A stretch of 64,000 nucleotides of DNA from Synechococcus sp. (GTDB taxonomy: Bacteria; Cyanobacteriota; Cyanobacteriia; Thermostichales; PCC-7336), in contig JBFRWN010000044.1 of assembly GCA_051439605.1 (NCBI GenBank), positions 96,249 through 160,248 of the forward strand, read 5' to 3'. Positions 38,965 to 58,992 of the stretch are shown one piece after another; the first letter of the stretch is position 1, and each line of letters begins with the position of its first letter. Under the pieces are notes generated by a model. It was not told where the DNA came from. It ran no database searches and saw nothing but the letters and a program-made list of their open reading frames with translations. Both the position numbers and the translations under genes were made by a program.

Positions 38965-39953
38965 TTACAAGCTGATTAACGATGAAACTGCCTCCTGTGC
39001 CATTGCAGCAATCGTTTCATCAGTTGCTCTGGGTAAGCAGTAGTAATTTCCATTTGCCTGCAAAGCCAGCTCCCGTGCAAATCCTGCCGAGACAAACTTG
39101 CGATCGGTGTCAATGAGCAATAGTTGCATGCCCAGGGCGCGAATTCTGGCCGCAATCTCCAGCAGTTCCTGTTTGATATCGGGCTGTTCTGCATTCGATT
39201 CGGAAACATGGGCTTGACGTAACGACCTCGATCCTGCGAAAAAATTAGGTTTCCCCCGCCAGCTTTGCCTCGGCGACGGCGAGTCAGCCGGGCAAAGTTT
39301 AGCAGAGTCGGATCGATCTCCATCGGTTTGGGGGGGATCTCAAACTCCTCTGGCAACGTTTCACCATCCTTCGCCAGTTCCACCCCCACCTGCAAATCCT
39401 CAGCATTGACGATCGTTCGCCCCGATAGGGCCGCACGGGCCTTGGCAACCCATACTGCGCACAATTCCCCCCGGTGGCCCTCCACTTGGGCTCGCTCGGC
39501 TTCAGAGACTAAATAAGCGATCTGGTGCCTGGCGATGGCGACACCAGGCAGTAACTGCCGGGCAAGGGCAACTTGCAATTGCAGATTCTCAACGTCAGCC
39601 GCGTATCGTTCCAGAAAAGCTTGAGGGTTGTCTTTGTCAGCGATCGCCCGATTTATCCCCTCAATCCGTTGCTCTACTGTTAGTGGGCGATCTCTGCCGA
39701 CAAACCCATGGCAAATAGGTCGAACAAGCGAGAGCGCAACTGTTTTTCTTCAGGATTGTAGGTGGCGATAAAGAGGGGCTTGCAAGGATGTTCGAAGCTA
39801 TTGCCTTCCCGCTCGATGCGATTTCGCCCCTCCGTCAAGATGGTTAGCAGCAGATTGGCAATGCTGTCCTCCAGCACATCCAGTTCGTCGACGTAAACTA
39901 CGCCGCGATGGGCTGCGGCTAAAAGCCCCGGTTGGAAAACGGTTTCATCCTGC
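38965..39953 (-). pseudogene. chlD: Magnesium chelatase subunit ChlD pseudogene
   Basis: [64 protein letters not shown] and a frameshifted C-terminal [25 protein letters not shown]. The N-terminus is missing, there is an internal stop at 39680, and the Pro-rich linker and most of the vWA domain are deleted. Confidence 0.88.
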
Positions 39954-39955
39954 TG

Positions 39956-40233: not shown

Positions 40234-41466
40234 ATGCTGAATCATCCAAAACACCAAGCTTGTCTTTGTGGGAGCAATGCAGAAGTCGTTAAAGCACTGA
40301 CAGAAACAGAGAAAATAGTAATAGGAAGGGCTCTAGACTGCCAGATTATTTTCGACGCTCCCCAGGAGGATGTCAGCGTCTCCAGACACCATGCAGAAGT
40401 GCGCCCTCTGGCCGAGTCAGAGGATTGGGAAATTTGCGACCTCAACAGTGCTAACGGAACCTTCGTTAACGGACAACAATTGCATGGATGTTTAAGATTG
40501 ACTCCGGGCGATCGCCTAACTTTTGGCCAGAGTCCACGGGAATTAGTTTTTGAAGTCCAAACGCTCCCGGCTATAGAGACGGGAACGGAAGTTTCTTCTC
40601 CGGGACAGAAAGGTCCTTTGTCGAGGCCAACAAATCATCACCGTAGTATTCTCTCTCCTGGAAGCTGGTTTCCACCGTTACGATCCCCCATTCAAAGCTC
40701 TGACTCAAAACCACGCTCAAGCTGGCAAGAGCTGTGGGAAAAAGGCAGATTCTCGTCGGTATTTATCTACTTAATACTATGTTTGATCGCAGTTTCGGTA
40801 TCAGATCGAGGCATTTCTAACGCACTTTTTACTGGATGCCTGCTAAGCATAGCCATTGCAACCATTTCTAGATTATGTGGCAAGTATAAGCCTTGGTGGC
40901 TGATCTTAGGATTAGCCTCAATCACTGCGGGTTTAACAGTTGTGGGACATGACTTGTTACCCGATATCCTAGCTGTAAAAAACGGTATATCTATTGTAAG
41001 GCAGTTGATTAAGGCTCCTACAAAAGAGATAATCAAAGCACTACCTGTGCTAAGCATCTATTCTATGGGCAGAATGCTGCCTCGCGCTTTACAGAAGAGA
41101 ATCAGAATTGTCGATCCTCTGGATGGAGTCTTATTAACAATTGCTTCAGCAATTGGGCTCGTAGTTGTTGAAAGTTATCATAAAGATCTTGCTCTCATTA
41201 TTGCTGGAATTTTGCCCAATACTGCCGGGGATTTAGCTTATAGTGGAGTTTTTGGCTACTACATTGGCCTGAGCGCAATGAAGAGTCCTCGTCACCGTTG
41301 GAAAATAATCGGATTTGGTTTTTTGCTGACGTCAGTGCTTCATTTTGTTCTAAATCTCAGATTTTTTCCAGTCGAGATTAGGATTTTGCTATCAATTTTA
41401 GAATATAGTCTGTTGATAACCTGTATTCTTAAAGGAATAGATGAAGCAGAAAAAATGAGAGCATAG
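40234..41466 (+). CDS. FHA domain plus PrsW-family intramembrane protease-like protein with degenerate catalytic motifs
   Basis: FHA: IGRALDCQI, VSRHHAEV, DLNSANGTFVNG. PrsW-like: LCGKYKPWW, KEIIKALP, DPLDGVLL, AYSGVFGYYIGL, LH..LN. Confidence 0.85.
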   Translation: MLNHPKHQACLCGSNAEVVKALTETEKIVIGRALDCQIIFDAPQEDVSVSRHHAEVRPLAESEDWEICDLNSANGTFVNGQQLHGCLRLTPGDRLTFGQSPRELVFEVQTLPAIETGTEVSSPGQKGPLSRPTNHHRSILSPGSWFPPLRSPIQSSDSKPRSSWQELWEKGRFSSVFIYLILCLIAVSVSDRGISNALFTGCLLSIAIATISRLCGKYKPWWLILGLASITAGLTVVGHDLLPDILAVKNGISIVRQLIKAPTKEIIKALPVLSIYSMGRMLPRALQKRIRIVDPLDGVLLTIASAIGLVVVESYHKDLALIIAGILPNTAGDLAYSGVFGYYIGLSAMKSPRHRWKIIGFGFLLTSVLHFVLNLRFFPVEIRILLSILEYSLLITCILKGIDEAEKMRA

Positions 41467-41586: not shown

Positions 41587-42741
41587 TTACCGTTTCTTAA
41601 GATGTAAAGAGACATGGATGATTTGCTGAAGAGATTCGGGAACTTCTAAATAGATTGCATTCGCAATCTCTCCGAAAATAGTTGCTAAAGAACCAGGATA
41701 TATCATAATTGACAAGCCATATTTAACAAGACAAGCAGTCAGAGCAAGCTCTTCGATTAAATATTGGCGAGACAATTCTACAAAGTTTTCGAAATTGTCA
41801 GCATTCCGTTCGATGTGCCGAAGTGTAAAGTCATCGGCACAAGCTTTAACTGAAAGGGCAAATCTGCTATCTTGGGCAACTAAATCTTCTATTCGCTTGA
41901 GATTTTTATAATACTCATCTGAATTTTCGATCTCTGAAGCACAGATCGTATCGATATGGCAGGTGTCTGCATGTCGTTCAAAGATGCCGCTTGACTTGTC
42001 TATGAATTCTCTCCCGAGAAGCAGTGCTTTGGTACGTGCTCGCCTTTCGCCAATACCTCTGTGGATTTGCAATGTATATTGATGAATGCTATCAGCAATA
42101 AATACCGTGCATCTCTTGTAATGATTTGCGATCCAATCTACTGTTGCTATCAACCTTGGCATTGAAAATTTTTTGTTTTCTAAACTTACTCCTAAAAAGC
42201 AATGTTCGTTCTGATTAAGCTTTTTCCGAGCAGTATTCGGAATAACATTGCTCACCAGTGCGCGATATCTAGAGCGAGTTAAAAAGGATATTTCCTGTCG
42301 CGGTTTTATCAGCTTTTCGTATTCTCTATACTCCATTCTCAAGAGATGTCGGTAAGACCCTAGATAACAGGAAATTTCTTGATTTTGGAGCAAATCTTGC
42401 GCAAGTATGGTTTCCATCTGATAGATATTTCCGAAGGGGGGGATGGTACCATACTCGCACCCGGGAAATAACTGGCTAGCTTCTTGTCGATCGATCAACC
42501 TAACCTGGGTTGTCCCTAAAGCTTTTTGAAGAGATCCCAAATTAATTGCTAAACTCGCGGGGATCACCACCATAGCTTTGTGATGATGTTCGATTTCTAC
42601 GATTACAGCTTCAATTAGCTCCATTCCTAACATGGATTTATAGTCCGAAAGTTCCTGCTCTGTACAAGCTGGTGAATGTTCGATCGTTATATATTTGATC
42701 TTGTTCTGATTTAAAACATCCTGGACTTTCTGAATCATCAT
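41587..42741 (-). CDS. Fusion of a YbaK/ProX aminoacyl-tRNA editing domain to a tRNA-dependent cyclodipeptide synthase (XYP subfamily, BcmA-like)
   Basis: Residues about 1-148: HSPACTEQE, MVVIPAS..INL..L, FPGCEYGTIPPFGNIY (GxxxP loop). Residues about 158-384: HCFLGVSLEN (catalytic Ser), CTVFIADSIH, ALLLGREF, SRQYLIEELA (Tyr/Glu), MIYPGS, VSLHLKKR. Confidence 0.88.
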   Translation of the reverse strand: MMIQKVQDVLNQNKIKYITIEHSPACTEQELSDYKSMLGMELIEAVIVEIEHHHKAMVVIPASLAINLGSLQKALGTTQVRLIDRQEASQLFPGCEYGTIPPFGNIYQMETILAQDLLQNQEISCYLGSYRHLLRMEYREYEKLIKPRQEISFLTRSRYRALVSNVIPNTARKKLNQNEHCFLGVSLENKKFSMPRLIATVDWIANHYKRCTVFIADSIHQYTLQIHRGIGERRARTKALLLGREFIDKSSGIFERHADTCHIDTICASEIENSDEYYKNLKRIEDLVAQDSRFALSVKACADDFTLRHIERNADNFENFVELSRQYLIEELALTACLVKYGLSIMIYPGSLATIFGEIANAIYLEVPESLQQIIHVSLHLKKR

Positions 42742-42753
42742 GACCGATAAATT

Positions 42754-45700
42754 CTATATGTCGTGACAGACTTCTAGTTCTTTTTTGGCTTCGGGATGCG
42801 TGGCTAGATAATCCTTTAGCCAATTGCATCCCTTGTCTATGAGTTCCTCGTAGCTGGCAATTGGCCACAGATAAGCAATTCCATTGGCTGAAGCAGTGAC
42901 TATCTGTTCTCCATCGGGACTGAAGCTGGCGCTATGGACTGCATCGCCTTGATGATCCGTAAAAAGAGGGAATAGTTTGCCCTGCAAGTCCCACTGGCGA
43001 ACGGAGCCATCTGCCGAGCCAGTGAGCAAATGCTTCCCATCGTGACTGAAACTGACGCTATGGACTGCACCTTCGTGGCCAGCGAATTCTTCTTGCAGTT
43101 GATTGGTCTTTAAGTTCCACAGGCGAGCAGTTTTATCCGCCGATCCAGTCAATAGATAGTCTCCTTCAGGACTAAAGCTAACGCTCCAGATCCAGCCTGT
43201 ATGGCCTGGGAATTCTTGCACTTGATTGCCCTGCAAGTCCCACAGTCGTGCCGTGCCGTCAGCCGATCCTGTCGCAACCTGCTGCCCGTCAGGACTGAAT
43301 TGTACACTCCATACCTCAGTCTTCTCGCCGACGACAGTTGCGAGTTCTATCACGTCTGCAACGTCTATAACCTCCCCTTGTGGACGATCTGGCAAGTCAT
43401 AGATACGAACCGTGCCGTCAGACGAGCCAGTGACTAACTGCTGACCGTTGGGGCTAAAATCGACCCCCCAGACCCAATCCTTGTGACCAATAAATGTGGC
43501 TAGCTGATTCCCTTCTAAGTCCCACAAGCGGGCGCTACCATCTGCCGATCCGGTTGCAAGCTGCAGTTCGTTGGGGCTAAAACTCACCTCCAGTACCGTT
43601 CCCTCATGGCCGATAAAATTCGCTTGCTGATTCCCCTGCAAGTCCCATAAACGAGCGGTGCTATCTGCCGAACCTGTGGCTAGTTGCTGCCCGTTGGGGC
43701 TGAAACTGGCGCTATAGATGAGACCCGAATGACCGATGAACTTAACCTGCTGCATATTCTTCAAGTTCCACAGTCGAGCAATGCCATCGGTCGAACCCGT
43801 TGCAAGCTGCTCTCCATTGGGACTGAACTCAACGCTCCAAACTTGGCCACGATGCCCTCTAAATTCTTCAAGTTGATCTCCCCGTAAGTTCCACAGGCGA
43901 GCTGTGCCGTCTTCCGAGCTTGTCACTAATTGCTGGCCATCCGAGCGGAACCGGATGTTATAAACCGGCCCACGGTGACCTCTCAATTCTTTCACTAGAG
44001 CACCCTGTAAATTCCACAGGCGAGCTCTTCCATCTTCTGCGCCGGTTGCTAACTGTTGCCCATCGGGACTGAAATTCACACTGTAGACTGCACCTTCGTG
44101 GCCTGTAAATTCGATCGAGCGATCGCCCTCGATATCCCACAGACGGGCGGTGCCACCTGCCGAACCCGTTGCGAGATACTTTCCATCGGGACTAAAGTTG
44201 ACACTCCAAATCCAGCCGTTGCTATCTGAGTATTCATGCAGGAGGTTGCCCTCTAAGTCCCACAGACAAGCTGTACCGTTATCCGAACCGGTAGCCCACT
44301 GCTGACCATCGGGGCTAAAACTAATGCTCAAGACTTTGCCCTGAAGGTCCTTAGTGAATTGAATCAATCGATCGCCCTGTAAGTCCCACAGGCGAGCCGT
44401 ACCATCCCACGATCCAGTCGCTAGGTACTGACCATCGGGACTGAAACTGACAGTCTGGACTCTGTCCAGATGGCCTTCTAACTCTCGCAGTAGATTGCCC
44501 CGTAAATCCCATAAGCGGGCCACACCATCTTGCGAGCCGGTAGCCAGCTGCTGACCATCGGGACTGAAACTGACACTCCAGATTTCACTCTCAAGGGGTT
44601 GAAATTGATTGCGTTCTTCAATCCCGTAAAGAATTTTCCCCAGTGCCATCACAACCGTCGGTGCTTGTGCAAGTAGATTTTTTCCTTCACCCATTCTTTG
44701 TGCAGACTGCATTGACATCAGCAAGGCTTTTAACTGTGAAGAGGTCTCGAACTCGCGCAAAGCCTCTAACCCCTCCCGTTCCAGTTTCAATGCGCGCAGT
44801 CTAGATTGACTTTCCCTAAAGACCAGTCCTCCGACTATGGTTGAGACTGTCAGACCGATCAAGAGTACTGCCGTCGCTTGTTGAAGCCGCTGCTTTGCCT
44901 TGCGAGAAGCATTATTGACGTGTTCTAGTGTTTTATTCGCTTGTTCCAGGCTTTGGTTGACTCGTTCCAGTTTTTGATTGGCTTTTTCTACTTTTTCCTT
45001 AGCGTGGCGTAATTTCTCTTTCGCATCTTGTTCCGCCTTCTTTGCTCGACGCTCGCTCTTCAACGCTGTTTCAATGTCCTGTTTCTCTCGTTCCCGACTG
45101 GCATCTAAAAACTGATTGTCGTCATCGCTCAAGCTTTTCCCCTTTGCCCATACCTTCGCCTGCTGCAATGCCTCGCCCCGCAACAGACAGGTATCATCCT
45201 GGCGGTTGGAGGCAAGCCAAGCATTGAGGAATGCAGCATAGGGGCGCAGGTTCGCCAATTCCCCTGCCACCCAGTCCAAGTCAAAAATGGCCTGGTAGAT
45301 AGGATTGCGGGAGCGGATTTTATCCCGATCCTTCACCACCAACCCCGACAGGCGCAGGTCAATCTCCTCCAGACTTTCCGTAGCGCTAACTTCCCCCTGT
45401 TGCAGCACCCGTTCGTAAAGAGCCAGGATGCGCCCTTTACGGGGGTTAGGATTGCTCAAATCCTCTCTTAGCAGGCGATCGCGAATAGTCTTCAGGTGCT
45501 CGGGAACATCCTGTGCCTCCCACTTGTAAAGGATGCGATCGCGCACCAATTGGGCTACCCGGTCTAGCTCTTCCCCAGCAGCGATGGGGGACTCGGACGA
45601 TTGAACCAACCAGCATAGCTTCTGAACGAGGAACGGCTGTCCCCCCGTCCAGGCCAAAATCTCTCGCAACACCGCTTCGGGATTGGCCGCTTTCCCCCTC

Positions 45701-46398
45701 AATCCCTTTTTCAGGGGTTCCTGAACCTCCTCAAACGTAAAGCCAGCTAGATCGATCGCCCGCCCGATGTTGAAGGGGGTACGCGCCTTATCCTGAATCA
45801 AGTCCGACGGATTAGCTACACCAATGAGGGCAAAGGTGAGGCGGCGGAAGGCGGGCTTGTCCGTGCGCGCGTTATAGCAAGAGCGGATGAAGGCAAAGAA
45901 GTCATCCCGCGAGAAGCCCTTTAGGCTGAGAACGCTATCGATTTCATCGATGAAAATGGCGATGGGCTGCTGCACTTCCACCAGCAGTACCGTTTCGATA
46001 AAGCAGCCTAAAAGTTCCACCAGGGTGAAAGAGTCCCTCTCCCTAAGCCAACTACGAAGGTTAATCTTCTCCCCCAAATCAAAACTCCTCGTTAGGTGGC
46101 GAATGACCGCCGAGTACCATTTTTTGGGGGTTACGTCCTGACTGCTACCGATACTGCTGAGGTCGATTGCCGCACAGGCTACCCCCTCCCGTTGCAGCCG
46201 TTGCATCACCTGCACCCGCACGCTCGATTTCCCCATCTGGCGAGAGTTGAACAGGTAGCAGAACTTCCCGGCCCTGACTGTTTCGTAGAGCTCTCGATCC
46301 GCCTGTCGTTCGACGTAGGTGGGATCGTCTGCCAGCAAGCTACCCCCGACATGGTAGTCAACTGAAGGAGGGGAAGGATAAATGGCGGGAAAATTCAT
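42754..46398 (-). CDS. AAA_35-type STAND NTPase-coiled coil-TM-14xWD40 protein
   Basis: [27 protein letters not shown] Walker A, IFIDEIDS Walker [16 protein letters not shown], coiled coil, TM helix [18 protein letters not shown], 14 countable WD40 repeats. Confidence 0.93.
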
Positions 46399-46475
46399 CG
46401 TTCTCAAACAAGGGTAGGGAATTGAACGCTGTGTTTGGGAGCAAGGGATGTCTCAGTTCGTCTTGAACCTATTCC

Positions 46476-48395
46476 CTACGTCCGACTTGCTAGGCGCTCG
46501 CGGAAGTACTGCCGATACAGTTCGGAGCGAGGCGAAACTTCGTTGCCTTCAAAATTGACCAATCCCAGACGATTCAGCTTGAATTCAAATTCGGGCTCTA
46601 AGCAAACAGGCTCAGAAGCCGTGACTACTGTTTGCATTGCTGCCAGCAAATCGGGATGCCTTTTAAGATTTCGAAGATGTCGTCTGAGATGATTTCCATA
46701 GAGTCCTGCATCTGTTGAGGCAGTCTCTAGCAGTTGGTCAAAGTTGAGCCCTTGGCATGCAAGATGGTAAAGGGCAACTCGAATCAGATAAGGATGTCCG
46801 CCAATCACCGCCATCAGGCGATCGACCTGCTCGCTTGTCCAATTGAGTCCGTATCGATGGGCTAAATCCAACACTTGCTCGGGGGTGAATTCAGGTAAAG
46901 AAATTTCGATTCCTACGTTAAAAGGGGAGGAGTTGGTGTCCATCACAACATAGACTTCTGTGGAATAGGCGAGGATTAATCTCACTTTGGACCAGATGCT
47001 ATGTGTTTTAGATTGCTCGTGCCAGTAACGAAGCAGTTTGAGAAAATCTTTAGCGACTCGGTGTTGGTAGAAAAGACTATCAATATCGTCAAGAGCTAAT
47101 ACCAGAGGACCGTCAACTTTTGGAAGCAGACATTCCTCAAAGTATTGCGAACAGTTGACATTGGGACCAAAGAATTCTTCATCCCAATATTCGTTGATTT
47201 TCTTAGGAGAGATACCCAGTTCTCGACTCACTAACGCACAGAAGCGGCGCAGAAGTTGGTTGAGATTCGAACATACGCTCTCTTCAAATTGAGTGAAAGA
47301 CAGTAAAATAGTGCGATAGCCTTGCTTTTGCGCATAGTCAAGAATCCTGACCATTAAAGATGTTTTGCCCATATCGAGGGGGGCTTTTAGCCGAATCAGA
47401 GCTGCTCGCTTGACAATCTCTCGATAGCAGCGGTTTTCAAGCTCCGCTCGCGCGAGGTAAAACGCTGATCCTAAGGCTACGTGCCCTCTGGGATCGTCCT
47501 GACAAAACTCGTTGGGGGATGGAATGGGGAAAACGGTTTCCTCGGCGGAACGAGCGATCGCATCCCGAACAGCTTGTAGAGCTTCAGCCGCAGTCTGGTA
47601 TCGCTGGCGGTAGTCCTGGCGCACCATCTTGTCTAGAATCGCGGCCAGTCCGGGGGAAATGACAGCCCGTTCTTTTAACAGCGCACACCGATATTCCTGC
47701 GTCTCTGGGGTCTGGGGGAAATTATTCGGAGTCAAGCCAGTTAGAGCTTGCAAGCAGACCAGTCCCGCAGCGTACAGATCGCTGCTGTAGTGGGGATTGC
47801 CCATCAATTGCTCCCTCGGTGTATAGCCGGGGGAGCCTATGGGAACAGACCGTTGGGACGCTCCATTACCATTGGTGCCAAGGTTTTGGAGATCTTTGAC
47901 TGCCCCAAAATCGATCAGGACAATTTTGCCATCACTGGCTCGCCGAATGAGATTGCTGGGCTTGATGTCTCGGTGAATGGCGTTCTGGGAGTGGACAAAT
48001 ACCAACACCTGCAAAATATCTTCGAGGAGAGCGATCGCCGCCTGCTGACTGAGTGGCTCTCCTTCTACCAGTTCCCGAGCCAGGGGGTGTCCCCGCACGT
48101 AATCCTCCACGAGATAGAAATTCCCCGATTCCTCAAAGTGAGCTAGAAGTCTCGGAATTTGGTCGTGCTCTCCCAACCGGTAAAGGCTTTTCGCCTCATC
48201 ATCAAATTTGCGCTTCGCCAGATCGAAGACTTTGGGTTCTTTGGGTTTGAGTTTCTTGACAACACAGAAAGGGTTGCCTGGTAAGTGGCGGTCTTTCGCA
48301 ATATACGTTTGCCCAAAGCCCCCTGCGCCTAACTGTTTGACAATTTCGTAACGATTAGCCAGTACTTCAACCATAGAATTCTTACCATTTGTCAA
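46476..48395 (-). CDS. Pkn2-type Ser/Thr protein kinase fused to an AAA_35-type STAND domain
   Basis: LGAGGFGQTY, VVKKL, HRDIKPSN, DFG, SDLYA; then GHVALGSAFY, KAPLDMGKTS, LALDDID, SPFNVG, GGHPYL. Alternative start ATG 48374. Confidence 0.93.
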   Translation of the reverse strand: MTNGKNSMVEVLANRYEIVKQLGAGGFGQTYIAKDRHLPGNPFCVVKKLKPKEPKVFDLAKRKFDDEAKSLYRLGEHDQIPRLLAHFEESGNFYLVEDYVRGHPLARELVEGEPLSQQAAIALLEDILQVLVFVHSQNAIHRDIKPSNLIRRASDGKIVLIDFGAVKDLQNLGTNGNGASQRSVPIGSPGYTPREQLMGNPHYSSDLYAAGLVCLQALTGLTPNNFPQTPETQEYRCALLKERAVISPGLAAILDKMVRQDYRQRYQTAAEALQAVRDAIARSAEETVFPIPSPNEFCQDDPRGHVALGSAFYLARAELENRCYREIVKRAALIRLKAPLDMGKTSLMVRILDYAQKQGYRTILLSFTQFEESVCSNLNQLLRRFCALVSRELGISPKKINEYWDEEFFGPNVNCSQYFEECLLPKVDGPLVLALDDIDSLFYQHRVAKDFLKLLRYWHEQSKTHSIWSKVRLILAYSTEVYVVMDTNSSPFNVGIEISLPEFTPEQVLDLAHRYGLNWTSEQVDRLMAVIGGHPYLIRVALYHLACQGLNFDQLLETASTDAGLYGNHLRRHLRNLKRHPDLLAAMQTVVTASEPVCLEPEFEFKLNRLGLVNFEGNEVSPRSELYRQYFRERLASRT

Positions 48396-48860
48396 AATCG
48401 CAATATCCTACTTTCACAATGAAGTTTATTTTGATCGTCACCGTCCAAGAAATCTTCGCTCTAAAGTCGGTCTCAAACCCATTCAATTACCAAATTTTGC
48501 ATGGTTTCAGAAGCAAAAACTTCTCGTATAGAATAGGATTGTCCTGCTAAAAACAATAATAAATGATTTGAAATTCAAAAGCTGACTATACATGGATCAT
48601 TACGCAAAGAAAGTTTTCTCCTGGAGGTTTCTTGGACTAAGCAATGTCTTTCGAAGTGTTGAAGTGTCTTCACTCCATCAAAAGAGAGATACCTCTAGTA
48701 TCGCCTAGCCTCTAAGCCGAGCAATTTAAATCATACAAATTGAAATCTTTTAATCTTTGCTCCTACTTATGTCAATCCCCTAATGCGTTGCTGGAACCAA
48801 ATTTTCCCTGTCCAACCAGCCAGGGCTCGTTGGACGATCGAACAACAGCGTTCTAGCGAA

Positions 48861-52461: not shown

Positions 52462-53139
52462 CTATTCCGACATTCGTTGGGTGCGCATCCCGGAGGCTAT
52501 GTAGACCGTTGCCAAAATAGCAAAGACATAGGCTTGGATGACTCCGATTAGCAGTCCAAATGCTTGCATGATAGGTGGAATGAATAACGGTACGAGGGAC
52601 ACCAAAATGGCTACCAGTAAATTGCCACTCATGATGTTTCCAAACAGGCGAATGGCTAGCGATGCTGTCCGCGTCACTTCACCTATCAGGGTGAAGGGCA
52701 GCATCAGTGGGGTAGGCTGCAAGTAGTTCTTGAGATAGTTCAGCAATCCTACTTTTTGGATGCCAAATAGGGGCACCGCTACAAAAACGCAGATCGCCAA
52801 GGCCGACGTAGTGGAGAGGGAGGCGGCGGGAGAGATGTAAAACGGTACGATCGCCAATAGGTTGGCCACTGCAATAAATAGGAAAAGGGTGCCGATAAAC
52901 GGCAGATAAGGTTTCGGCTCTTCGGCGATCGCATCGCGAATTTGTCCGGAGAGCGCCTCCACGATGATTTCCAGCAGATTTTGCCAGTTCGAGAGTGTCG
53001 ATTCTACAGACAGATTGCGCGTGATTAGCCGCGAGCCAATGACGAGAACCGCCATCACCAACCATGTGAAGCAGAGTGTGGCATTGAAACCGATATCTCC
53101 CACTTGCAACAACAGGATATTGTCCGGATTAATTTCCAT
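52462..53139 (-). CDS. atpB: N-ATPase subunit a
   Basis: NATLCFTW, WQNLLE, YLPFIGTLFLFI, SLSTT.ALA, LAIRLFGNIMSG, IQAYVFAILA.VYI. Confidence 0.95.
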   Translation of the reverse strand: MEINPDNILLLQVGDIGFNATLCFTWLVMAVLVIGSRLITRNLSVESTLSNWQNLLEIIVEALSGQIRDAIAEEPKPYLPFIGTLFLFIAVANLLAIVPFYISPAASLSTTSALAICVFVAVPLFGIQKVGLLNYLKNYLQPTPLMLPFTLIGEVTRTASLAIRLFGNIMSGNLLVAILVSLVPLFIPPIMQAFGLLIGVIQAYVFAILATVYIASGMRTQRMSE

Positions 53140-53437
53140 GCTGTGCTTCTCCCACGTCAGTATCTAAATCTTGGGGTTTCAGGCGATGGGTAAGTAACCA
53201 GCGGGCCAACAGAATGCCTGCGAGGCAAACGAGCGTTGGGGCCCACTGTCCGTCCGCTACCCAATAAATCCCGAGTAGAACCACTGCCATGCGACCCACA
53301 AAACTGCCGACAAACAATCGCGCTGGCCACTGCGTGCTGGGTAGTTGTTTCACTGTCAGCCACAGCATTCCGAAATAGAAATAGCCGAGTCCGAAGCCGA
53401 AGGGTAAAGCAATGAGCAGATGCCATTGGGGAGTCAT
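53129..53437 (-). CDS. atpR: N-ATPase accessory subunit AtpR
   Basis: GYFYFGMLWLTV..LP, SFVGRM; overlaps the atpB start; GAGGTGG RBS before ATG 53437. Confidence 0.85.
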   Translation of the reverse strand: MTPQWHLLIALPFGFGLGYFYFGMLWLTVKQLPSTQWPARLFVGSFVGRMAVVLLGIYWVADGQWAPTLVCLAGILLARWLLTHRLKPQDLDTDVGEAQHGN

Positions 53438-53724
53438 AACCACCTCTCTGAACAAGACTTGGGATGGCAGTTCGCCACCGATAAGCCCCCACGAACGACT
53501 CCTTGCCCTAATTGTGCGAGTAGAGGAGACTCGACTGACAGACTATGCCAGGAGATGGTGAGGTCTTGGGAGCTAACGCAGCTAGCGAGTAAGGGGCAGC
53601 GGGAATCAATCGGCAATTCTGGAGGACGATTCGATCTCGCACCCCTGTTTTTAGTGTCGTAGCTATTCCAATTGACATGGTTATATCAACAGGAAACCTT
53701 CCAGACCGCGATCGGTGTTTTAGC

Positions 53725-53819
53725 TATAGCGACCGTCAAGTCGCTTAGGACATTTCAGCTAACCCAATCCCTGGCTGAGCATAGATCTCTCTGTCCAAAC
53801 TGAAATGTCAAGAGCTATA
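53725..53819 (+). repeat. Structured dispersed repeat, copy 4 (best preserved)
   Basis: TATAGCGACCGTCAAGTCGCTTAGGACATTTCAG...CTGAAATGTCAAGAGCTATA; inverted GACATTTCAG/CTGAAATGTC and terminal TATAGC/GCTATA. Confidence 0.85.
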
Positions 53820-54028
53820 TTGCGTCACTGTTCAAAGACGGGTCAGACTTTTGGTCAATCATCAAAACTCCAAACCCACGACTCAATCAGGGTTTGTACG
53901 ATCTGACATCTATGCAACGTGTCACCCCGATGGCTTACGTGTTTGAACCAGGTCCATTCTGATTCCCGAGCGAGTTGGCAGCGGGATTGCATTACCCGGT
54001 CCGTCCAGGATCGATCGGTCGGGAATGG

Positions 54029-54198
54029 TTAGGAGCGGGATGGTAATTGGCTTTTCTCGAATACCTGTTGGCGATCGCCACAGCCAATCACAGAACCATG
54101 GGCAGCCATTGAGTAGGGGAAATCTAGTTCGGGATAAAACTTCGTGGCGTAGAGTAGCATATGGTTGGAATTCCACCAAGCAAACTTCGGAATCGGGA
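54029..54198 (-). pseudogene. Frameshifted fragment duplicating the 3' end of the 56210-57757 gene
   Basis: PDSEVCLVEFQP then, in another frame, LYATKFYPELDFPYSMAA..GCGDRQQVFEKS, versus PDSEVCLVEFQPSTFLYAAKFHPELDFTYSVAA..GCGDRQQVFVKS. Confidence 0.85.
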
Positions 54199-54513
54199 CG
54201 TTTCTCAAATGCCTCGGCATTAGAGTAACACTCTAATCGGGGTTCGAATAACATACAAGGCTGATTTGGTAAGGGCCAGAGGCTTTGATGTGCAATTGAA
54301 ACTGTTACCCTAACTCGAGCCATGCGTATTTTAGGGACTCTTAATAAGCAGAAATTCAAAAAGTTGACGGCCATAGATTACCTTACATATCCTATATTCC
54401 CTGCCCTGAAATGCTTCTGGAATTTAACCATACTGAACCAGTCCTGCAGATTTTACAATTGATTTAGGGCTGCTATAGGTATTGTTGAGGGCGGAAAATC
54501 CGCATTATGAGCT

Positions 54514-56001
54514 ATGTCTGTAAACCCCCTAGCTGAGATCCGCTCGAAGAGTGAACTAATTCTGAAAGGAGTGGCTTTTATTGCACTTTTATCTTTATTT
54601 CTGAAGGCCATTATTGATATTGACCAGGCGTTTGATACGTGGTGGTATCACATCCCCTTTGCCGCGCGATTGTGGAATCTCGTTCCTGCCGATCGATATA
54701 CTAACTTCGTTAAAGAAGAGTTTAGATATCTCGGATTCCCCCTACTGATTGAATATTTGAGTGGCTTTTTATGGTGGGCGACCCGGCACGTACAAGCTGG
54801 AAATCTGGTTAACTACTTTTGCTTGATTCTCTACTGTGTATTTCTGCAGGCTTACTTTAAGGTTCCCTTCTATCTAAGTAGTCTGGCACTGTTAGCAGTG
54901 CCTCTGGTGCAAATTCATGCGTCTACCTATTATGTTGATTTGCCTGGAGCGGTTTTTCTATCCGGTGTTGTTCTGCTGACTTATCGTCTGTTTGTTCTTG
55001 ATGGAAATGATGCCGATACGCCTAAAGATTTGCTGCTGATAATCATACTGTCTACTATGGCAGTCAATACTAAATTTCAATTCATCCCATTAGTAGCGTT
55101 TGTGCTGGCGATCGCCCTGGCTCGGATTGTTTGGATTCGCTGGAAGTTGTTTCGAGGCCAGGAAAAGACGCTACGACATTTACTGACATTGCTGCCGACA
55201 ACTATTTTGGGAGGGGCACTGATTTTTGCGACGCCTCTCAAAAATCTCGCTATTTACGGCAATCCATTTTACCCAATTCGCTTTGAGGTGGCGGGAATTG
55301 TTCTCAACCACGATATTGGATTCTACCAACATGCTGCCGATTCTGTGGCTGAAGTTCCGCAGGTGCAGCGGTGGCTTTATTCCATTTTGGAAGTGAGGAG
55401 TCCACTGTGGAATATCGACCAATGGAGTCCCGATCCATCGTTAAGTCGGCTGGGGGGATTTTTTGGTGCCTATGTCATCTTTAATCTGCTGCTGTTGGTG
55501 TATCTGTGTTGGCACCACCGATCTCGCGCATCATTCATGGCGATCGCAGTTTTGGTCATCATGTCAGCCGTTACAGCGTTGGCCCCACAGTCCCACGAGC
55601 TGCGATACTACATGTATTGGATGGTGACGCTGGTTTCTCTGAATCTGTTGCTGCTTGCCGCTCTCGAGCGATCGCCCCAACCTTCTCGATGGCTCAATTT
55701 TTCGTCAATAGGGATTGCTTGCGTAGCGTTTTTATTGATTGTGATAGTTCGGACGAATTTTGCTTACATTGCTCCGACTTTCCATACCCTCGATACCCAT
55801 TTTAAATACTTTTTCGACCCGAATATACTGGCGCAGATTCAACCCGATGAAGACGTCTGTTTAATTAATCGTAGCCAGCAGTATCGAAAGACTTTCCTTT
55901 ACGCACCCATTTTTCATCGTGACCTAGGCTATACCTATTCCATTCGAGCTGCTCTCGAACCGGAAGAATGTGGCGATCTTCGTCAAATAGAAGTCCCCTA
56001 A
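54514..56001 (+). CDS. Multi-TM membrane protein, putative GT-C-fold glycosyltransferase; paralog of 56210-57757
   Basis: DTWWYHIPFAA in the first loop, HASTYYVDLP, GNPFYP, PQSHELRYYMYW; many TM helices. Confidence 0.75.
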   Translation: MSVNPLAEIRSKSELILKGVAFIALLSLFLKAIIDIDQAFDTWWYHIPFAARLWNLVPADRYTNFVKEEFRYLGFPLLIEYLSGFLWWATRHVQAGNLVNYFCLILYCVFLQAYFKVPFYLSSLALLAVPLVQIHASTYYVDLPGAVFLSGVVLLTYRLFVLDGNDADTPKDLLLIIILSTMAVNTKFQFIPLVAFVLAIALARIVWIRWKLFRGQEKTLRHLLTLLPTTILGGALIFATPLKNLAIYGNPFYPIRFEVAGIVLNHDIGFYQHAADSVAEVPQVQRWLYSILEVRSPLWNIDQWSPDPSLSRLGGFFGAYVIFNLLLLVYLCWHHRSRASFMAIAVLVIMSAVTALAPQSHELRYYMYWMVTLVSLNLLLLAALERSPQPSRWLNFSSIGIACVAFLLIVIVRTNFAYIAPTFHTLDTHFKYFFDPNILAQIQPDEDVCLINRSQQYRKTFLYAPIFHRDLGYTYSIRAALEPEECGDLRQIEVP

Positions 56002-57762: not shown

Positions 57763-58992
57763 TTAGCTACTCGAAGGAGAGATGAGTGACTGAAAAAGGT
57801 TCACATATCGATCGGCGCAGCCCTGCCAACTCCAGTGCTCACGGGCAAAGGAGGCTACTTGAAGGCGCAAATCCGCAAGCATCCGATCGCGGTCTTGCAA
57901 AATAGTTGTCAACCGGTCCGACCATGTGGAAACGGCATCAGTTTCCACATCCGCTACCAAGATGAGGGGGCGAGCAGCACTGTAGGCCGAAGCTGTTTCG
58001 GGACTGACCATGGCAGGGGTGCCACAGGCCATTGCCTCTTGCACCACCAGTGGAAAGCCTTCGCCTTTGCTGGGCAATACCAGTAAATCGGCAACTTGGT
58101 AGAGGGGGGTCAGTTGGGGGCCTCGACGATCGCGAAATACTCGCACGTTAGGCATGTCCCAGGTATCTGGGTCGAGCGGTCCCCATCCAGCAAAGAGCCA
58201 GGACACCGAGGGGAATCGTTGGGCCACATCTTTGAGAATGGACAGGCCTTTTTTCTCGACGAACCGTCCTACAAACAAAAATATCGGTTTGTCCTTCGGT
58301 AGATCTAAGTCCTGCCGAACTAGCTCTCGCTTAGAGGGCTCGATCGGAATGTAAACCTCGGTGTCTACTCCGTTCGGAATCAGCATTGCTGGAGTCCGAA
58401 ACCATGTCTGGCGGTTGAAGTAGGCTTGCACCCCTTCACTGATAAATACAGTGCGGTCAGCTTGTCCCAATACTAGCGAACCCAAGGTGCGATTTAATAT
58501 CGACAAGATGCTGCGGAGCAGTGCACTGTCGTAGGGGATAAACCCAATGTGCTGGGTGACGACAACTGGTTTGCCACAAAGCTTGGCAAACAGGAATGCC
58601 GCCATATTTCCCATATACAAATAATCGTGCACGTGCACGACATCAGCTGCTCGCACCTCTTTCCACAGCCGGACTAACGACGGCAAGCTCCACAGCGGAT
58701 ACGGCAGTTGCAGCTTGTCTTCGACAATATTGCACGCGCGGGCTGGTATACACTTTAGACCGTCAACTCCTTCGGAAGCTGGGGTAACGTCGCTTGCCAT
58801 CCACCGCACGGTCACGTCACCAGTACTGGCTAAGAACTTGGCCAATGTACCGGCAACAATTTCTATGCCGCCACGGTGAGTGGAATAGAAGTGAGACACC
58901 AATAGTACGGTGATTGGGGCGGAGGGGCCGGATACAGACATCAAAAGTGGCTCCGTGCGGCGAGCAGAGTTCTGGATGGAGGAGAAAGGCAC
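57763..58992 (-). CDS. Glycosyltransferase family 4
   Basis: GGIE, IPNGVD, FVGRFVEKKG, PSKGEGFPLVVQEAMACGTP (Ex7E). Alternative ATG at 58941. Confidence 0.93.
   Translation of the reverse strand: MPFSSIQNSARRTEPLLMSVSGPSAPITVLLVSHFYSTHRGGIEIVAGTLAKFLASTGDVTVRWMASDVTPASEGVDGLKCIPARACNIVEDKLQLPYPLWSLPSLVRLWKEVRAADVVHVHDYLYMGNMAAFLFAKLCGKPVVVTQHIGFIPYDSALLRSILSILNRTLGSLVLGQADRTVFISEGVQAYFNRQTWFRTPAMLIPNGVDTEVYIPIEPSKRELVRQDLDLPKDKPIFLFVGRFVEKKGLSILKDVAQRFPSVSWLFAGWGPLDPDTWDMPNVRVFRDRRGPQLTPLYQVADLLVLPSKGEGFPLVVQEAMACGTPAMVSPETASAYSAARPLILVADVETDAVSTWSDRLTTILQDRDRMLADLRLQVASFAREHWSWQGCADRYVNLFQSLISPSSS

Follow-up and report, generated by a model that had tools for sequence, protein, structure and literature searches.

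The window analysed here is a stretch of 64,000 nucleotides (nt) from Synechococcus sp. (contig JBFRWN010000044.1, positions 96,249 to 160,248), which carries three adjacent minus-strand genes encoding a kinase fused to an AAA_35 STAND nucleoside triphosphatase (NTPase; gene 1), a second AAA_35 NTPase with a WD40 region (gene 2) and a YbaK-like domain fused to a cyclodipeptide synthase (CDPS; gene 3). In the reading preferred here, to which a probability of roughly 45% is assigned, this locus would be one version of a recurrent, modular NLR-like conflict operon, in which a BcmA-related CDPS serves as an accessory of a STAND-WD40 protein and its cyclodipeptide provides a small-molecule arm, be it an alarm, a messenger or a chemical defence. 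The clade of synthases to which gene 3 belongs is almost always linked to STAND-WD40 genes, and the upstream effector and the NTPase class are interchangeable, with kinase-AAA_35 found here and Metallophos-SIR2, SIR2 or SIR2-TIR with nSTAND1 found elsewhere. Furthermore, an N-terminal YbaK-like domain is usually present in this family of synthases.

An earlier note on this DNA had described the three co-oriented genes as a candidate new system, and all three open reading frames (ORFs) were recovered (Table 1) with the gaps of 77 nt and 12 nt between them when gene 2 is taken to begin with the ATG at 46398. The linkage of the CDPS fusion to STAND-WD40 genes proved to be recurrent when gene neighbourhoods were compared. 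A word-indexed protein search returned 27 proteins, and 20 clusters, including the window's own, feature both domains of gene 3; the named sources of these two-domain fusions are all cyanobacterial (Nostoc, Prochloraceae, Leptolyngbyaceae and Nostocales). In total, 17 loci from a genome collection and 29 from a metagenome collection were scanned, with their neighbouring genes run against Pfam, and a duplicate of L001 (L022), a partial copy (L027) and a locus 98% identical to the window but covering only the C-terminal 131 amino acids (aa; L024) were set aside before counting. In 10 of the 12 evaluable loci of the clade (the window, L023, L001-L006, L009 and L021), the CDPS gene comes immediately after a STAND-WD40 gene encoding 1064-1354 aa and has the same orientation. 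The remaining rows of the clade comprise a locus on contig C93 of the window's own genome (L052), where both genes belong to the same cluster with one gene between them, the unlinked L007, and L008, whose sequence breaks off 97 nt before the CDPS gene. In seven of the linked loci (L001-L006 and L009) the fusion follows 18-189 nt downstream of a gene for an nSTAND1 + WD40 protein of 1100-1354 aa, which is itself preceded by a gene for a Metallophos + SIR2_2 protein of 718-736 aa (SIR2_2 only, 458 aa, in L001), and L021 features the nSTAND1-WD40 gene before the contig ends. The architecture of the window is repeated in L023, comprising Pkinase-AAA_35 (645 aa), AAA_35-WD40 (1222 aa), the fusion (61% identity) and a convergent FHA-PrsW gene. 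The flanks vary among the loci (UPF0182, PRC, AAA_34 or transposase), and the adjacency is kept at 45-64% protein identity despite these changes.

The relationships of the synthases were resolved by a maximum-likelihood tree of 38 CDPS domains, from which duplicates (L049 and L042) and truncated domains (L041 and L053) had been dropped. All cyanobacterial fusions fall together with the CDPS of C93 into a clade of 13 rows (support 96/90), in which the window and L023 form a pair (100/99) that is nested in rows of the nSTAND1/SIR2 type and is weakly sister to L001 (84/64). The sister clade (100/99) consists of actinobacterial and proteobacterial CDPSs, including L010 with three 2-oxoglutarate (2OG) oxygenases and a P450 in a bicyclomycin-like setting. 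No tailoring genes were found beside any examined member of the cyanobacterial clade, and the suggestion of a CDPS wired to STAND- or NLR-like genes, not to a tailoring cluster, was thus borne out by the neighbourhoods.

The window's own genome contributes a second, differently arranged case. Contig C93 encodes a CDPS of 284 aa, which lacks the YbaK-like domain and shares 34-42% identity with the CDPS domains of the fusions, in one cluster with a SIR2_2-TIR and an nSTAND1-WD40 gene (Table 1), and a divergent TIR-nSTAND1-WD40 gene lies upstream. In its N-terminal part with the SIR2_2 domain, the SIR2-TIR protein shares 36% identity with residues 339-716, the C-terminal half, of the Metallophos-SIR2 protein, for which a phmmer search of the PDB sequences gave no match. 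Of 401 genomes sampled from the phylum, only 3 gave matches to the CDPS Pfam family; both CDPS genes of the window's own genome reside in STAND-WD40 clusters, and those of the other two genomes (G026 and G344) reside outside STAND contexts.

Gene 3 itself matches tRNA_edit (PF04073, residues 22-144, E 8.1e-16, 58.7 bits) and CDPS (PF16715, residues 171-334, E 9.2e-16, 58.7 bits against a cut-off of 27) in Pfam as well as TIGR04539 in NCBIfam (103.1 bits against a cut-off of 45), and its AlphaFold2 model reached a pLDDT of 81.8 and a pTM of 0.80. The CDPS domain resembles 9j61, the structure of SsBcmA, with Foldseek TM-scores of 0.92-0.96 over the target at 36-37% identity. Residues S186, Y327, E331, Y348 and P349 are invariant in all 18 aligned sequences, and the catalytic residues align with S43, Y185 and E189 of SsBcmA. 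The latter is an XYP-type cyclo(Ile-Leu) synthase in which these residues are equivalent to the catalytic S37, Y178 and E182 of AlbC; the Tyr-Pro signature of the XYP subfamily corresponds to Y202 of AlbC, with P in place of H203 (PMC11580168). Judged from these residues, the active site of the CDPS is intact, and formation of a cyclodipeptide is predicted. The P1 pocket was mapped by eye, by transferring the alignment with 9j61 onto the residue list in that paper. F39, G41, C125 and M204 of BcmA are kept in the window as F182, G184, C267 and M346, and L71, G73, I192 and F193 correspond to F214, A216, L334 and T335, four positions at which many of the nSTAND1-type relatives keep L/V, G, I/V and F. 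With a P1 pocket similar to that of BcmA, which uses Leu, a hydrophobic, Leu-type cyclodipeptide is a reasonable guess for the product and, given the four changed P1 positions, the product of the window's CDPS may differ from that of BcmA.

The composition of the CDPS gene sets it apart from its surroundings, with a GC content of 0.39-0.41 in the window versus 0.53 in the WD40 region and 0.513 in the genome, and a GC content at third codon positions of 0.34-0.43 versus 0.52 in the WD40 region. It lies below its neighbours in both measures at every locus checked (the window, L001, L002, L004, L023 and L052). Longer proteins fusing this CDPS domain to STAND, SIR2 or WD40 domains were not detected among 3172 candidates at E <=0.001, which is weak evidence. 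Likewise, when 72,556 plasmids and 50,697 phage records were searched by tblastn with the YbaK-CDPS fusion, there was no full-length copy and no phage match, with single-domain matches in 11 plasmid records.

The interchangeability of the upstream half is recorded in gene 2, which has to be regarded as a chimera. In tblastn searches of the genome and all loci, its residues 1-400 were 76% identical to L023 and 71% identical to a paralog on contig C1 of the own genome, and showed no similarity to the nSTAND1 partner proteins. The WD40 region aligned over its full length with L023 (64%), L001 (58%), L005 (55%), L002 (54%), L006 and L021 (53%), L003 and L009 (51%) and L004 (49%), the best WD40 paralogs of the own genome being those of C71 and of the nSTAND1-WD40 protein of C93 (42%) and that of C55 (35%). 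On these identities, the WD40 region of the window is orthologous to that of the CDPS-linked STAND proteins elsewhere. Since the WD40 region is thus shared with the nSTAND1 partners and the NTPase stands close to the C1 paralog, an nSTAND1/SIR2-type operon has received the 5' half of an AAA_35 pair in exchange for its own, i.e., for the effector gene and the NTPase, whereby the WD40 region and the YbaK-CDPS stayed together. An AAA_35 pair is at hand on contig C1, where a Metallophos-AAA_35 gene adjoins an AAA_35 gene with a hydrophobic segment and TPR repeats (Table 1), and it is to this pair that the NTPase modules of the window are most closely related (60-71% identity, the lower value applying to the AAA_35 part of gene 1 and the Metallophos-AAA_35 protein). 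The earlier statement that paired AAA_35 genes are common in cyanobacteria agrees with this second pair in the same genome and with the presence of AAA_35 in 131 of 401 sampled genomes. The swap shows that the CDPS works, or at least is retained under selection, with either set of NTPase and effector.

Nevertheless, several points weigh against a conflict operon with a cyclodipeptide arm. The conflict or immune role is suggested by domain content and context, and the small-molecule role of the cyclodipeptide is presumed. The linked loci are kin, and the linkage had perhaps two or three independent origins, for which type A (nSTAND1/SIR2) with its derivative type B, type C and a group of Myxococcota loci are the candidates, so that the counts given above overstate the statistics. 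Neighbouring genes at the loci were called with an own ORF script and no gene finder. Moreover, one clade member (L007) is unlinked, being flanked by UPF0182 and a malic-enzyme fragment, and two distant YbaK-CDPS fusions, L025 (35% identity) and L028 (30%), are not STAND-linked either but reside next to nif/NnrS genes and to a racemase with an MCP gene, respectively. Pairs of SIR2 and nSTAND1-WD40 genes which are homologous to the partners but lack the CDPS occur in L056, L057 and L058; the existence of such pairs makes the CDPS an add-on that is dispensable for the core. PADLOC-DB v2 yielded no system-level assignment and matched single-protein models only, namely generic kinase models (PD-T4-6, mad6 and MkoA) and HEAT-ARM on the WD40 region, with none for the CDPS. 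The retention of the WD40 region together with the CDPS could be a by-product of adjacency, because the two are neighbours on the DNA and a single recombination event suffices, so that their co-retention alone is no proof of an interaction; it would, in addition, fit an input role of the CDPS as well as the output role that the earlier note had proposed for gene 3. A prediction of the complex of the WD40 region with the YbaK-CDPS scored 0.00 versus a mark of 0.32, which counts neither for nor against. Finally, a hydrophobic segment resembling a transmembrane helix precedes the WD40 region of gene 2 and, if membrane-spanning, would put this region outside the cytoplasm, unlike its orthologs. 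The maxima of the mean Kyte-Doolittle hydropathy over 19 residues amount to 2.18 in the window, 1.92 in L023 and 2.83 in the AAA_35-TPR paralog of C1, as opposed to <=1.26 in the nSTAND1-WD40 partners (L001-L006, L009 and L021), which therefore lack such a segment despite their orthologous WD40 region.

Part of this evidence is also what sustains the best of the alternatives, an input side in which the WD40 region would monitor the YbaK-CDPS or its cyclodipeptide, the enzyme reporting on the aminoacyl-tRNA pool or being itself a guarded target, and the sensor would fire the effector set that happens to be linked to it, be it kinase, SIR2, TIR or Metallophos. The sensor domain is exactly what stays with the CDPS through the swap of NTPase and effector, the effectors vary freely, and a membrane-permeant dipeptide could reach the WD40 region on either side of a membrane, so that the presence of the segment in the AAA_35 versions would no longer be at odds with its lack in the nSTAND1 versions. 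Still, the single recombination mentioned above explains the co-retention equally, the CDPS of C93 lies at the opposite end of its operon, and homologous pairs do without a CDPS, and this arrangement is therefore considered doubtful.

Gene 1 features all motifs of a predicted Hanks kinase (GAGGFG at residue 23, VVK at 45, HRD at 141 and DFG at 162) besides Walker A (GKT, 343) and Walker B (DDID, 436) motifs in its NTPase domain, and the NTPase of gene 2 possesses both Walker motifs as well (GKS, 59; DEID, 154). Gene 1 shares 72.5% identity with its counterpart in L023, and the top PADLOC model for its kinase, PD-T4-6 (E 3.6e-90), is generic for Hanks kinases. The earlier note had assigned the kinase the task of activating gene 3. 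As a general rule this has to be given up, since most relatives possess (Metallophos-)SIR2 and nSTAND1 instead of kinase-AAA_35 and phosphorylation cannot be the coupling used throughout the family. Within the kinase version, a gene outside the operon coordinates of the earlier note deserves attention, namely the convergent gene of an FHA-PrsW membrane protease, which has a counterpart with 45% identity at the same position in L023. The gene beyond it encodes porphobilinogen deaminase in L023 and consists of chlD pieces in the window, with no further similarity of the flanks; owing to these differing outer flanks, FHA-PrsW is seen to stay with the kinase version in two contexts. It is probably the fourth member of this version, as deduced from two related loci only, and the FHA domain beside a Hanks kinase suggests, from the same two loci, a relay of phospho-Thr to a membrane protease.

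Such a relay would be a regulatory rather than a lethal output and thereby speaks for a non-immune function, i.e., a circuit of development, stress response or kin signalling, in which the cyclodipeptide would act as a quorum-like signal and the STAND-WD40/kinase pair as its regulator or receptor. Cyclodipeptides are widely discussed as signals, which accords with such a circuit, as does the lack of copies in the phage and plasmid collections searched. The commoner versions of the operon, however, are equipped with domains typical of conflict systems (SIR2, TIR, Metallophos and CHAT), and a TIR-nSTAND1-WD40 gene adjoins the C93 cluster. A function of this kind is accordingly rated as unlikely.

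A further possibility is that the CDPS is not coupled to its neighbours at all but is an ordinary natural-product or physiological gene, syntenic by descent with STAND and WD40 genes that are abundant anyway. STAND genes with AAA_35 and WD40 domains are indeed very common, AAA_35 often being present in many copies per genome, the linked loci are related to one another, and CDPS genes outside such clusters are known from L007, L025, L028, G026 and G344. Against it stand the adjacency at 45-64% identity amid changing flanks, its survival of a swap of the NTPase class, the different gene order around the second CDPS of the same genome and the rarity of CDPS genes, which renders two chance placements in one genome unlikely. 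Mere synteny is hence thought improbable as an explanation of the linkage.

The N-terminal domain of gene 3 bears on the last alternative. Besides lpg1207 (3op6), it matches the YbaK structures 2dxa and 1dbu, with Foldseek TM-scores of 0.69-0.81 over the targets, and it keeps the GxxPPxG loop, with G98, P102 and G104 being invariant. Position 44, however, is occupied by Glu, which aligns with the Lys of the 'KT' motif in 1dbu (K46 by alignment count), 2dxa, ProRS 5znj and 3op6; the Lys at this position (K46 of Haemophilus influenzae YbaK) is presumably essential for deacylation. Among 18 family members, position 44 is E in 16, A in one and N in one, and an alignment of 12 loci features D in L025, the Lys having survived in none but the distant L028. 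The score against the equivalog TIGR00011 is 36 bits versus a cut-off of 153. Because Glu replaces the catalytic Lys, the domain was not filed as a deacylase; it is probably catalytically degenerate. The claim that both domain families of gene 3 discharge aminoacyl-tRNA consequently does not hold for the YbaK-like half. The weakest of the readings is thus a substrate drain, in which the activated fusion would strip aminoacyl-tRNAs by CDPS turnover and YbaK hydrolysis until translation arrests: both domains stem from families handling aminoacyl-tRNA and the gene lies beside effectors of the abortive-infection type (SIR2 and TIR), yet the Lys aligned to that of YbaK and of the ProRS INS domain is missing, recharging by aminoacyl-tRNA synthetases would oppose depletion, and overexpression of CDPSs in Escherichia coli for in vivo product assays is routine, also for BcmA and many of its mutants (PMC11580168), which argues against strong toxicity and leaves this outcome very improbable.

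Returning to the conflict operon with a cyclodipeptide arm, the course of events in the kinase version could be envisaged as follows. The WD40 double propeller would detect a cue, upon which the two AAA_35 NTPases would co-assemble and the assembly would switch on the kinase, whose phospho-Thr marks might be read by the neighbouring FHA-PrsW membrane protease. In parallel, the YbaK-like-CDPS would take aminoacyl-tRNAs and release a small, hydrophobic and membrane-permeant cyclodipeptide, the dead YbaK-like domain possibly holding the acceptor end or taking part in regulation. The cyclodipeptide would then act as a diffusible alarm or messenger or as a chemical defence, with no action by way of translation starvation. 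In a bolder form, considered rather doubtful here, the tRNA-derived cyclodipeptide would be the dedicated messenger or alarm of an NLR-like immune system, with the dead YbaK domain gating access to aminoacyl-tRNA, and would be released on activation or sensed by the WD40 region, its effectors (kinase, SIR2, TIR or phosphoesterase) being interchangeable. If true, this would constitute a new chemical class of immune signal, by which cell-fate decisions would depend on the substrates of translation in cyanobacteria and perhaps also in Myxococcota.

The latter phylum comes into consideration through a GC-rich (0.67-0.72) Myxococcota-like clade of CDPSs (L014, L015, L035, L036, L038 and L040). In five of these six loci, the CDPS gene is followed at a distance of 0.4-3.8 kb, and in the same orientation, by the gene of a large kinase protein, and the N-terminal kinase domain matches the kinase of gene 1 in phmmer searches with E-values of 1e-9 to 4e-21. 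The large protein additionally features an nSTAND1-like NTPase and WD40 repeats in L015, L038 and L040, and a large protein with a C-terminal OmpA domain was found beside the CDPS in L036 and L040, the two loci examined in this regard. Kinases of this kind are abundant in Myxococcota and the loci are close kin; taken together, they are suggestive of one independent case of linkage.

Regarding the surroundings of the three genes, the leader upstream of gene 1 is AT-rich as described before, with a GC content of 0.37-0.39 (48400-48860) versus 0.513 in the genome. It contains no ORF of >=80 aa over its whole length, and the corresponding ~680 nt in L023 are likewise devoid of a substantial ORF. 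Scans for consensus promoters and terminators between 41000 and 49200 gave counts equal to those of shuffled sequences, and shuffled versions of the 77-nt gap fold at least as well as the gap itself (z -0.94). Both flanks named in the earlier note were identified. On one side, pieces of a Mg-chelatase gene in different frames (38965-39955) are consistent with the chlD pseudogene, and on the other, AtpR (53129-53455) is followed by the a, c, b/delta, alpha and gamma subunits of an N-ATPase. Genes for beta and epsilon were not found directly upstream, their usual place (operon at 53129-56001 of the window); the ORFs upstream of AtpR encode 150 aa (minus strand) and 495 aa (plus strand), neither with a Pfam match, and the N-ATPase operon may be incomplete. 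Further along the window (57763-58992, minus strand), a GT4 glycosyltransferase has an additional match to PF20706 (E 2.9e-12), a family named 'Family 4 glycosyltransferase in conflict systems'.

Some observations at the related loci should be recorded alongside. L004 and L007 represent two copies of the fusion in a single Leptolyngbyaceae metagenome-assembled genome, one of them STAND-linked and the other not, and the L004 copy hardly differs in branch length from the Nostocaceae copy of L003, which points to a mixed bin or a transfer. Four loci encode, immediately before the Metallophos-SIR2 gene, a conserved hydrophobic protein of 165-177 aa with 73-96% identity and no Pfam match (Table 1), the place of which is taken in L002 and L005 by a weakly trypsin-like protein of 382 aa. 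In the CDPS-less L057, a 91-aa ORF and a radical SAM gene follow the nSTAND1-WD40 gene and may form a peptide-modifying cassette where the CDPS sits elsewhere. An identification of this radical SAM enzyme as viperin was rejected, since viperin was not among its four PDB matches and the enzyme is anSME/SPASM-like. In addition, a stand-alone cyanobacterial CDPS of 303 aa is directly followed by a TerB-domain protein of 161 aa, representing another context of CDPSs other than tailoring.

Table 1. Coordinates of the features of the window and of related loci (positions in the window unless preceded by the number of a locus).
Feature	Position	Strand	Details
Gene 1, Hanks-type Ser/Thr kinase + AAA_35 STAND NTPase, 639 aa	46476..48395	-	Pfam, motifs
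Gene 1 kinase domain, residues 16-274	47574..48350	-	Pkinase E 2e-33
Gene 1 AAA_35 NTPase, residues 302-633	46497..47492	-	PF14516 451 bits, E 2.3e-135
Gene 2, AAA_35 NTPase, coiled-coil/hydrophobic linker, 14-blade WD40 region, 1217 aa	42754..46407	-	Pfam
Gene 2 AAA_35 NTPase, residues 22-375	45283..46344	-	PF14516 103 bits, E 2.3e-29
Gene 2 hydrophobic transmembrane-like segment, residues 512-530	44818..44874	-	19-mer mean Kyte-Doolittle 2.18
Gene 2 putative WD40 double-propeller sensor region, residues 601-1217	42757..44607	-	14 WD40 stretches, E 5.6e-159
Gene 3, YbaK-like domain + cyclodipeptide synthase, 384 aa	41587..42741	-	Pfam, NCBIfam
Gene 3 YbaK/ProX-like domain, residues 1-150, Glu44 for catalytic Lys	42292..42741	-	3op6 profile match E 2e-39
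Gene 3 XYP-type CDPS domain, residues 160-384	41590..42264	-	9j61 (SsBcmA) profile match E 1e-77
AT-rich non-coding leader, 5' of gene 1	48396..48860	-	465 nt
FHA-PrsW membrane protease gene, convergent, between chlD pseudogene and gene 3	40234..41466	+	FHA E 9e-18, PrsW E 8e-11
Conserved hydrophobic protein	L003:2609-3130, L004:2961-3473, L006:3199-3732, L009:2927-3424		Four type-A (nSTAND1/SIR2) loci
C93 cluster	L052:3562-7998; L055		CDPS, SIR2_2-TIR (531 aa), nSTAND1-WD40 on one strand
C1 AAA_35 pair	L050:4132-9483		Metallophos-AAA_35 (729 aa) + AAA_35-hydrophobic segment-TPR (at least 1027 aa, contig end)
CDPS-less relative	L057:7793-15667, L058 (same genus)		Trypco2, CHAT-SIR2, nSTAND1-WD40, 91-aa ORF, radical SAM (392 aa)
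CDPS-TerB	L016:9822-11303, L017:8968-10449, L049		

CDPSs are starter enzymes of pathways towards diketopiperazine natural products, and STAND/NLR-like proteins are sensors of infection or stress with protein- or nucleotide-directed effectors. A tailoring-free CDPS clade that is co-inherited with STAND-WD40 genes despite exchanges of NTPase and effector points to a physiological role of an unmodified cyclodipeptide, or of aminoacyl-tRNA sensing, in a cell-fate circuit. Bacterial immune-like signalling would thereby gain a new type of small molecule, or a new link to translation, and a degenerate YbaK-like domain would be given a functional context.

Among known systems, the enzyme itself is most similar to BcmA. 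SsBcmA (9j61) is the best match among solved structures, both enzymes have the catalytic Ser, Tyr and Glu and the Y-P motif in common and are placed in sister clades (100/99), and the P1 pocket residues, as listed in PMC11580168, are largely common to BcmA and the nSTAND1-type relatives. The differences lie in the context, as the tailoring genes for 2OG oxygenases and P450, which L010 possesses, have no counterpart here, and the CDPS of the window is fused to a YbaK-like domain inside a STAND-WD40 operon. With the YbaK/ProX deacylases and the uncharacterised single-domain lpg1207 (3op6), the N-terminal domain shares the fold, the sequence family and the GxxPPxG loop, from which it is distinguished by Glu44 in place of Lys, the NCBIfam score below the cut-off and the fusion to a CDPS. 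The operon as a whole belongs to the nSTAND1/SIR2-CDPS operon family described here, having a CDPS of the same clade and an orthologous WD40 region, and differs from its nSTAND1/SIR2 members in the NTPase class (AAA_35) and the effector (kinase).

Thoeris, CBASS, Pycsar and type III CRISPR are immune systems signalling through small molecules. Their logic of an enzyme producing a small cyclic molecule and of a SIR2, TIR or other effector taking action would be shared if the cyclodipeptide served as a messenger, although the molecule here would be a diketopiperazine derived from aminoacyl-tRNA and not a nucleotide, and no receptor domain was identified. Avs and bNACHT, for their part, are antiphage STANDs. 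The partner domains of the operon family belong to the vocabulary of conflict systems, comprising SIR2, TIR and a calcineurin-like phosphoesterase, joined by CHAT and Trypco2 in the CDPS-less L057 and L058. A survey of STAND/NLR-like conflict systems lists kinase, SIR2, TIR, calcineurin-like and CHAT effectors for systems of the nSTAND1 type and describes the combination of a P-loop STAND NTPase with a C-terminal repeat sensor and swappable effectors that is also found here (PMC8195603; Kaur et al., 2021). Here, the effectors are instead encoded in trans by genes of their own, the AAA_35 NTPase genes come as a pair, and a tRNA-dependent, peptide bond-forming enzyme is a conserved member. The terms 'cyclodipeptide' and 'YbaK' do not occur in the main texts, supplements aside, of this survey and of PMC7159879 (Kaur et al.). 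Searches of the full-text literature, subscription journals aside, turned up no description of a YbaK-CDPS fusion or of a CDPS in STAND operons, and on AAA_35 in cyanobacteria they yielded a survey of sigma factors only, in which AAA_35 figures as an accessory domain. The parts of this locus are known by kind; what appears to be new is the way in which they are combined, with a tRNA-dependent peptide synthase as a conserved member.

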